Assembly (NCBI RefSeq): GCF_056712565.1
Contig: NZ_CM160072.1
DNA length: 64,000 bases
Reading direction: 5' to 3' (one strand)
A model generated the notes under the pieces. It had not been told where the DNA came from. It saw nothing but the letters and a program-made list of their open reading frames with translations, and made no database searches. Positions 10,337 to 10,666 of the stretch are shown here, one piece after another. A program made the position numbers and the translations under genes. Numbering within the stretch: position 1 is the first letter of the stretch; every line of letters begins with the position of its first letter.

Positions 10337-10666
10337 ATGAAACGCTTTCCGCTATTTCTTTTATTCACCCTGCTCACGCTGTCCACCGTTCCGGCCCAGG
10401 CCGATATTATCGACGACACCATTGGCAATATTCAGCAGGCGATTAACGACGCTTATAACCCTGACCGTGGGCGAGACTATGAAGATTCGCGCGACGACGG
10501 TTGGCAACGCCAGGTGAGCGACGATCGTCGCAAGCAATATAACGATCGCCGCCGCCAGTTTGAAGATCGCCGCAGGCAGCTGGACGATCGCCAGCGCCAG
10601 CTTGATCAGGAGCGTCGGCAACTGGAAGATGAAGAGCGGAGAATGGAAGATGAGTATGGGCGTTGA
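10337..10666 (+). CDS. yjdP: Secreted low-complexity protein YjdP
   Basis: 109-aa ORF with signal peptide (MKRFPLFLLFTLLTLSTVPAQA) followed by R/D/Q/E-rich repeats. Confidence 0.8.
   Translation: MKRFPLFLLFTLLTLSTVPAQADIIDDTIGNIQQAINDAYNPDRGRDYEDSRDDGWQRQVSDDRRKQYNDRRRQFEDRRRQLDDRQRQLDQERRQLEDEERRMEDEYGR

Follow-up and report, generated by a model that had tools for sequence, protein, structure and literature searches.

YjdP, the DDRRRQL repeat protein of Escherichia coli, belongs to a family that has already been defined (NF041443; PF28054), whose members combine a signal peptide, an ADIIDDxIGNIQQAINDAY motif and DDRRRQL heptads and whose gene adjoins phnP. The literature that we found on yjdP concerns its expression or position only, so that the original prediction was right to describe its function as unknown. 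Inhibition of LolCDE increased yjdP expression 9.5- to 10.6-fold (FPKM from 10.6 to 100-112), in a list made up mostly of Rcs targets (rcsA, wca genes, wzc, yjbEFG and osmC) that also includes Cpx-, sigmaE- and RpoS-dependent genes, such as cpxP, degP and katE (PMC5105897). The binding site of RcsB, the RcsB box, has been published as TN(G/A)GAN4TC(T/C)NA (PMC7913699). A literature search by yjdP locus or repeat name yielded nothing relevant, the literature retrieved contained no experiment on YjdP export, structure, RcsB dependence or phenotype, and neither an Rcs link nor a rod-like structure of YjdP has been reported within the literature searched.

Here, we analyzed the yjdP locus in a stretch of DNA of 64,000 nucleotides (contig NZ_CM160072.1), hereafter the window, to which positions refer unless another locus is named. 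Our joint reading, to which we assign a probability of about 80%, is that yjdP is a real gene, that the two long antisense open reading frames (ORFs) opposite to it are compositional, that its product is a Sec-exported protein with a predicted helix of six heptads, and that it is transcribed from a candidate RcsB-type promoter.

Occurrence and conservation of yjdP

The yjdP coding sequence occupies positions 10337..10666 (+) and encodes 109 amino acids followed by a stop codon. The segment 10200..10800 is 100% identical to E. coli DSM 30083 / ATCC 11775, in which 10337..10666 (+) is annotated as yjdP, "DDRRRQL repeat protein YjdP"; thus, the gene name used in the original prediction was correct. 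The peptide quoted there, DRRKQYNDRRRQFEDRRRQLDDRQRQLDQERRQLEDEERR, corresponds to residues 63-102 of the plus-frame translation, and the three ORFs that it described are present at 10337..10666 (+), 10361..10621 (-) and 10443..10697 (-). An HMM search matched the protein to the NCBIfam equivalog NF041443 (DDRRRQL_YjdP) with 146.6 bits (cutoff 90) and E = 2.3e-43, and the match was full-length, with residues 1-103 placed on profile positions 1-101 of 101. PF28054.1 was the precomputed label on 120 of 120 YjdP homologs among the matches listed (70-100% identity). No difference from the family was found, as phnP adjacency and architecture both agree and all three family features (signal peptide, N-terminal motif and heptads) are present in the window protein.

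The yjdP region was matched in 5404 of 5426 complete E. coli genomes. Orthologs were collected as 52 loci from one-genome-per-species contigs of Enterobacteriaceae, including Escherichia, Citrobacter, Enterobacter, Klebsiella, Raoultella, Kosakonia, Kluyvera, Leclercia, Phytobacter, Yokenella, Atlantibacter and Buttiauxella. The plus-strand frame was intact in 51 of these 52 species loci, which represent at least 17 genera. The sole disrupted case was Leclercia adecarboxylata NCTC13032 (L045, 4001..4147), where the frame ends after 48 codons; this is likely a pseudogene or a sequencing error.

A Pfam scan of the sense protein gave sub-threshold compositional matches only, among them DUF7900 (17.7 bits; cutoff 27), and a search of a representative library returned 58 matches, which included many fragments but not a distant family with an annotation. 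Long repeat proteins that appeared in the latter search with E values of ~1e-4 to 1e-8 were rejected as relatives, since their similarity is compositional. We conclude that yjdP is a real, conserved gene of Enterobacteriaceae that has been catalogued before, in NCBIfam, Pfam and RefSeq annotation.

Upstream region and genomic context

To describe the upstream region, we aligned the 110 nt preceding the start codon across all 53 loci. The order of elements was a conserved block, aTTTGAGATTCCTCCGCTAC, followed by approximately 18 variable bases, the sequence tTG-ATTAacGTAa and a Shine-Dalgarno element. The block spans ~20 nt (10264..10282) and contains an RcsB-box-like motif, TGAGATTCATCCAC (10266..10279, +), which has the form TNRGAN4TCY and is found at -71 to -75 relative to the start codon in all 53 loci. 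Its first three bases, TGA at 10266..10268, are the stop codon of rpiB. A putative -10 hexamer, TAATGT, is located at 10303..10308 (+), and a TAnnnT hexamer follows the box by 23-24 nt in 51 of 53 loci; the gap is 23 nt in yjdP of the window, and among the 51 full-pattern loci it is 23 nt in 47 and 24 nt in the other four. The Shine-Dalgarno element, GAGG (10326..10329, +), lies 7 nt before the ATG, and its GAG is conserved in the alignment. By itself, the degenerate box is common and matches 10 times in the 64-kb window. The composite of box, gap and TAnnnT occurred once, at 10266, and is expected by chance ~0.0006 times per 120 nt.

With respect to the published RcsB box, TGAGATTCATCCAC agrees at 8 of the 9 specified positions, the last base being C where the consensus has A. 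Of the 51 full-pattern loci, 49 have C and 2 have G at this position. For comparison, the rprA promoter of MG1655 consists of TGAGACGAATCTGA, a 23-nt gap and TACTAT, with the box centered at -42.5 relative to the annotated 5' end of RprA. The yjdP promoter shares with rprA the TNRGA-N4-TCY box, the distance of 23 nt to TAnnnT, a box center at about -42.5 (for an inferred yjdP transcription start), directly ahead of the -35 region, and a poor -35 element. It differs from RcsB-activated promoters in the last box base (C, not A), and the action of RcsB on it is putative. This arrangement would fit an activator-dependent promoter with a weak -35 element and a transcription start at ~10315, on which the RcsB-box-like motif would be centered at approximately -42.5. 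We infer, with moderate confidence, that this promoter is activated by RcsB, in which case YjdP would belong to the Rcs envelope-stress response as a periplasmic member. The induction of yjdP by the LolCDE inhibitor is consistent with an RcsB-type promoter, although it does not single out Rcs, because the list of induced genes mixes Cpx-, sigmaE- and RpoS-dependent genes. The supplements of the iModulon, envelope-stress array and 2026 transcriptome papers contained no data on yjdP in an rcsB mutant, and a promoter/terminator scan did not pick up the conserved upstream promoter.

In the window, yjdP is located between rpiB (9819..10268, +) and the convergent phnP (10694..11452, -). Downstream of yjdP, phnP was found in 39 of the 52 loci. 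On the upstream side, 35 loci have a hybrid histidine kinase, 8 have rpiB and 5 have fdhF. The promoter-bearing spacer of ~69 nt is kept despite these changes of the upstream neighbor, and within E. coli yjdP persists when either flank is replaced; it is a gene that behaves like an independent unit. A functional link to the hybrid histidine kinase upstream was considered as the main explanation on account of its adjacency in 35 of 52 loci, and was rejected because nearly all kinase-less E. coli retain yjdP and because yjdP has its own conserved promoter.

Several observations were made on the flanking genes. The upstream genes (rpiB, the hybrid histidine kinase/response regulator and a GNAT-like ORF) end ~68-70 nt before the yjdP ATG, and those other than rpiB appear to end at the same TGA triplet as rpiB. 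The sequences suggest that upstream cassettes may have been exchanged exactly at the TGA junction of the box. In O145 and in a goat isolate (L006 and L007), a hybrid sensor kinase and a GNAT pseudogene stand in place of als-rpiB, and yjdP is intact; an OI167-type island corresponds to this replacement (PMC10128022). L007 also has a degraded phnP, and a low-molecular-weight phosphotyrosine phosphatase gene adjoins yjdP. Some E. coli lineages (L003, L004 and L005; 52..369) have upstream a 105-aa "RpiB/LacA/LacB family sugar-phosphate isomerase" in place of the 149-aa rpiB product of the window, which points to a possible 5' truncation or altered start.

The conserved upstream block could also be explained in another way, as an operator of some other regulator, a recombination junction or a transcript-end signal, with the induction of yjdP running via Cpx, sigmaE or RpoS. 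The conserved ~20 nt exceed the 14-nt box, the 4-nt spacer and the 3' flank are conserved as well, and the last consensus base does not agree. In addition, the upstream genes, although unrelated, all end ~68-70 nt ahead of the ATG, where the TGA of the box lies, several regulons are mixed in the LolCDE list, and a ChIP peak of CsiR as well as 3.5-fold repression were reported for yjdP (PMC5217608). However, the half-sites TNRGA and TCY occur in every one of the 53 loci, where the allowed positions carry compensating variants (GGGA, TCT), and the spacing to the -10 hexamer is identical to that of rprA. We therefore regard this explanation as a serious one, if somewhat improbable, and prefer the RcsB-type promoter.

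On the 3' side, a hairpin (10656..10719; -27.2 kcal/mol, z = -2.47 against shuffles) spans the convergent yjdP and phnP stops and extends into the 3' end of phnP. It is predicted without a T-run and may serve as a shared bidirectional terminator or a transcript-stabilizing structure; a consensus terminator scan over the yjdP region found no terminator, including at 10656..10719. A site between yjdP and phnP is also recorded in a survey of G-quadruplexes and hairpins (PMC5100583). In K-12-like E. coli, the yjdP and phnP stops are separated by 146 nt (L002, 968..1113), compared with 27 nt in the window (10666..10694). The additional 119 bp are G-rich and partly palindromic (e.g. GGGGAGAGGGTTAGGGTGAGGGG) and resemble a BoxC/REP-type intergenic repeat, and inserts of intermediate length (+7 and +68 bp) are found in other strains.

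Organization and predicted structure of YjdP

The first 22 residues (MKRFPLFLLFTLLTLSTVPAQA; 10337..10402, +) form a predicted signal peptide with cleavage after AQA. By inspection, it consists of MKR, a hydrophobic core, FPLFLLFTLLTLSTV, and PAQA|D. A basic n-region, a hydrophobic h-region and small residues at -3/-1 are all present, as is typical of Sec and signal peptidase I substrates, and a lipobox Cys is absent. The AxA|D motif is found in 50 of 52 orthologs, in agreement with the signal peptide noted in the original prediction, which is of the Sec type. Beyond approximately residue 25 no ortholog contains Cys, and therefore YjdP is not a lipoprotein. YjdP is likely to be exported via Sec, with cleavage following Ala22.

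The signal peptide is followed by an N-terminal segment, DIIDDTIGNIQQAINDAY (10403..10456, +; residues 23-40), which is amphipathic, strongly conserved and carries the motif ADIIDDxIGNIQQAINDAY. Its entropy at codon positions 1 and 2 (0.48 and 0.30) is similar to that of the repeat region (0.50 and 0.29), and AlphaFold2 predicted it to be helical with low confidence. Next is an acidic linker (10457..10519, +; residues 41-61), whose length and sequence vary among orthologs. Its pLDDT is below 50 at residues 44-49, and only about residues 41-53 are predicted to be unstructured.

The remainder of the protein is the DDRRRQL heptad-repeat region (10520..10663, +; residues 62-109), which comprises six heptads with an a-g consensus of R-R-Q-L-D/E-D/E-R. 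At the DNA level, Tandem Repeats Finder detected three copies of a 21-nt unit (10544..10605, 75% matches), and a repeat search found three 42-nt copies from 10520 with a spacing of 21 nt. At the protein level, the charge signal has its maximum at period 7, with a power of 8.15 compared with at most 2.25 at the other periods tested. Thus, the periodic charged repeat that had been reported from the sequence is real, with a 21-nt DNA unit and a protein charge period of 7. Residues Y68, F75, L82, L89, L96 and M103 occupy one common heptad position, d. Across 52 sequences, this position is L in 73%, Y in 16%, F in 4%, M in 4% and I in 2%, and position a is R in 53%, Q in 24% and E in 12%.

Exactly six heptads were found in 50 of 52 orthologs, and the length variants of YjdP correspond to whole heptads. 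A 102-aa E. coli allele lacks seven residues (DRRRQFE), and E. albertii has a 123-aa YjdP with 14 additional residues. The 102-aa allele is common in E. coli; the allele of the strain analyzed here has 109 aa and six heptads. It is plausible that the 21-nt DNA repeats are the substrate for heptad gain and loss.

AlphaFold2 (monomer) predicted a continuous helix at residues 54-108 with pLDDT 89-97 when an alignment was supplied, and at residues 49-107 with pLDDT 91-98 when it was not; it should be noted that high AlphaFold2 confidence on charged repeats is not proof of a stable isolated helix. In residues 62-109, the charged fraction is 0.67, the net charge per residue is 0.00 and 7 of 48 residues are hydrophobic. 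Opposite charges are arranged in 32 i/i+3 and i/i+4 pairs, compared with 20.2 +/- 3.3 in shuffled sequences (P = 0.0008), and like charges in 2 pairs compared with 19 in shuffles. The repeat is probably a salt-bridged helical rod, as modeled, with one conserved Leu seam. When the AlphaFold2 model was compared with the PDB by Foldseek, no match was obtained, and a PDB sequence-profile search gave only weak matches to coiled coils: M protein (E = 0.0024), 2yo3, which is a GCN4 fusion construct (0.036), MITF (0.084) and GCN4 (0.27).

The original prediction was that YjdP is a secreted, disordered polyampholyte. The polyampholyte part was borne out by the charged fraction and zero net charge given above, whereas the disordered part was not. 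Structure prediction returned the repeat as a helix and confined the unstructured part to the linker at ~41-53. Nevertheless, a flexible charged chain, which might act for example as an entropic spacer or as a binder of charged envelope polymers, has some points in its favor. Besides its composition, with so few hydrophobic residues, the repeat is rich in Asp, the linker is predicted to be unstructured, the pTM of the whole protein is 0.36-0.41, and the PDB sequence-profile and Foldseek searches revealed no solved homologs. Asp is a poor helix former. On the other hand, the helix is predicted to be continuous with or without the alignment (pLDDT 89-98), and the charges are ordered at a nearly optimal spacing for salt bridges. 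Moreover, the heptad register, the heptad number and the Leu position are kept across genera, which argues against disorder, as selection on composition only would not be expected to keep them. A disordered mature YjdP is thus unlikely, and we retain the helical model.

According to this helical model, the mature protein of 87 aa would consist of a conserved amphipathic N-terminal helix, a variable acidic linker and a rigid helix of ~55 residues, whose six heptads would be held by intrahelical salt bridges between Asp/Glu and Arg. The Leu seam would probably allow self-association or docking on a partner.

Reverse-strand reading frames

Two long ORFs are found on the strand opposite to yjdP. 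ORF A (10361..10621, -) has 86 aa, starts with TTG and lies in the codon-aligned antisense frame; ORF B (10443..10697, -) has 84 aa and starts with GTG. A codon alignment of 52 sequences (51 orthologs and the window sequence) was used to compare the frames. The entropy at sense codon positions 1, 2 and 3 was 0.70, 0.46 and 1.39 bits, respectively. The wobble position of ORF A coincides with sense position 1 and that of ORF B with sense position 2, i.e. with the two least variable positions, position 2 being the lowest. Within the repeat block, the sense frame had a pooled pN/pS of 0.25, and the values in the frames of ORF A and ORF B were 1.40 and 2.34, respectively. These data show that purifying selection acts on the plus-strand frame. 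The third antisense frame, with a low pN/pS of 0.30, was dismissed as an artefact, since it has its wobble position in common with the sense frame and contains stops in each of the 52 sequences.

The frame of ORF A is interrupted by a stop within the repeat block in 34 of 52 sequences, and the frame of ORF B is stop-free over ~73 codons in 90% of orthologs. The boundaries of both are unstable within E. coli: ORF A has 58-108 aa among six strains, with differing start codons, and ORF B has 84, 119 or 136 aa in four strains and is unlisted at a minimum of 40 aa in two. Neither product matched Pfam, and the NCBIfam search gave one negligible match (E = 0.45). An Rfam scan of 9800..11200 with E values up to 1 had no match, so no known RNA accounts for the reverse strand. 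A sigma-70-like match is located inside the repeat on the minus strand (10536..10564; TTCAAA, 17 nt, TATATT); such sites occur in the region at chance level, 2 found versus 1.5 expected, and are not accompanied by a conserved antisense product.

We then asked why the frames are open, using null models in which synonymous codons were redrawn according to window usage or in which codon order was shuffled, either in codons 45-109 or gene-wide. When the same protein was recoded with synonymous codons, the codon-aligned antisense frame was open over at least 101 codons in 29% of trials and the other antisense frame over at least 73 codons in 79%. When codons were shuffled within the charged part (codons 45-109), these frames stayed open in 100% and 83% of trials, respectively. 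A shuffle of the whole gene gave lower figures, only because the stop-generating codons of the signal peptide, CTA and TTA, were relocated. The original prediction had attributed the open frames to the nucleotide periodicity; this explanation does not hold, as a shuffle that destroys periodicity keeps them open. The cause is instead the D/E/R/Q composition: the reverse complements of GAY, GAR, CGN and CAR codons are never stops and read L/I/V/A, which also gives ORF A its resemblance to a membrane protein. Furthermore, 6.8% of 1076 in-frame 330-nt segments, drawn from 34 long ORFs of the same 64-kb window, were equally open, with one antisense frame of at least 101 codons and a second of at least 73; two such frames are only mildly unusual. 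ORF A and ORF B are therefore passive consequences of the amino acid composition of yjdP.

Both antisense ORFs are artefacts and not genes, as had been anticipated, and the conservation and per-frame comparison proposed for checking this point found the plus frame conserved and the minus frames not. That ORF A or ORF B is a genuine overlapping gene, ORF A resembling a small hydrophobic membrane protein, can be dismissed as hardly credible: both frames are long and open, that of ORF B in most orthologs, and ORF A is rich in L/I/V/A, but their wobbles fall on the least variable sense positions, both pN/pS values exceed 1, ORF A is interrupted in most sequences, starts and lengths vary among E. 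coli strains with ORF B absent from two, recoding or shuffling the sense gene reproduces the openness, and neither product has a Pfam or NCBIfam family.

Comparison with known systems

With regard to the gene itself, little is changed by these findings, since yjdP and its repeat family were already known and the antisense ORFs are ordinary compositional artefacts. The locus does provide a worked example of how a gene rich in D/E/R/Q casts long, hydrophobic-looking shadow ORFs that are able to mislead gene finders, and of how a codon-position test settles the question. The added value is modest and lies in a testable hypothesis for an uncharacterized protein that is present in nearly all E. coli, whose two parts are a conserved promoter of the RcsB type and, instead of a disordered chain, a heptad helix with salt bridges. 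If this hypothesis is borne out, the Rcs envelope-stress response gains a small periplasmic component.

These two parts can be combined into a more specific proposal, which we put forward tentatively and consider rather doubtful as a whole: YjdP might be a directly RcsB-activated periplasmic helical rod of a fixed six heptads and ~8 nm, with a role in envelope stress. The rod could act via its conserved Leu seam and Arg-rich faces, either as a self-associating spacer or scaffold or by binding anionic envelope polymers or a sensor protein, and natural heptad gain and loss, as in the 102-, 109- and 123-aa alleles, could tune its length.

With respect to structure, the predicted YjdP rod can be compared with two classes of helical proteins. 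Charged SAH (ER/K-type) domains share with it a high charge density, alternating acidic and basic blocks and dense i/i+3 and i/i+4 salt bridges, as well as a long isolated helix, which in YjdP is predicted with high confidence. However, YjdP has Asp, Arg and Gln where SAH domains have Glu and Lys, and it keeps Leu, Tyr or Phe at one heptad position, whereas SAH domains have no hydrophobic seam; the presence of this seam means that YjdP is not a textbook SAH. In addition, SAH domains that have been studied well, those of myosins and caldesmon among them, are known from the cytoplasm, whereas YjdP is probably exported, judging from its signal peptide.

Coiled coils, such as those of GCN4, MITF, streptococcal M protein and Lpp, have in common with YjdP the strict 7-residue period and Leu at position d, which in YjdP extend over six heptads, and the predicted YjdP helix is similar to Lpp in length. 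No homology of the YjdP repeat to heptad coiled coils was detectable in the PDB sequence-profile search. In contrast to a canonical coiled coil, position a of YjdP is not hydrophobic and is instead mostly Arg or Gln, so that the classical core is missing and YjdP is not a textbook coiled coil either.
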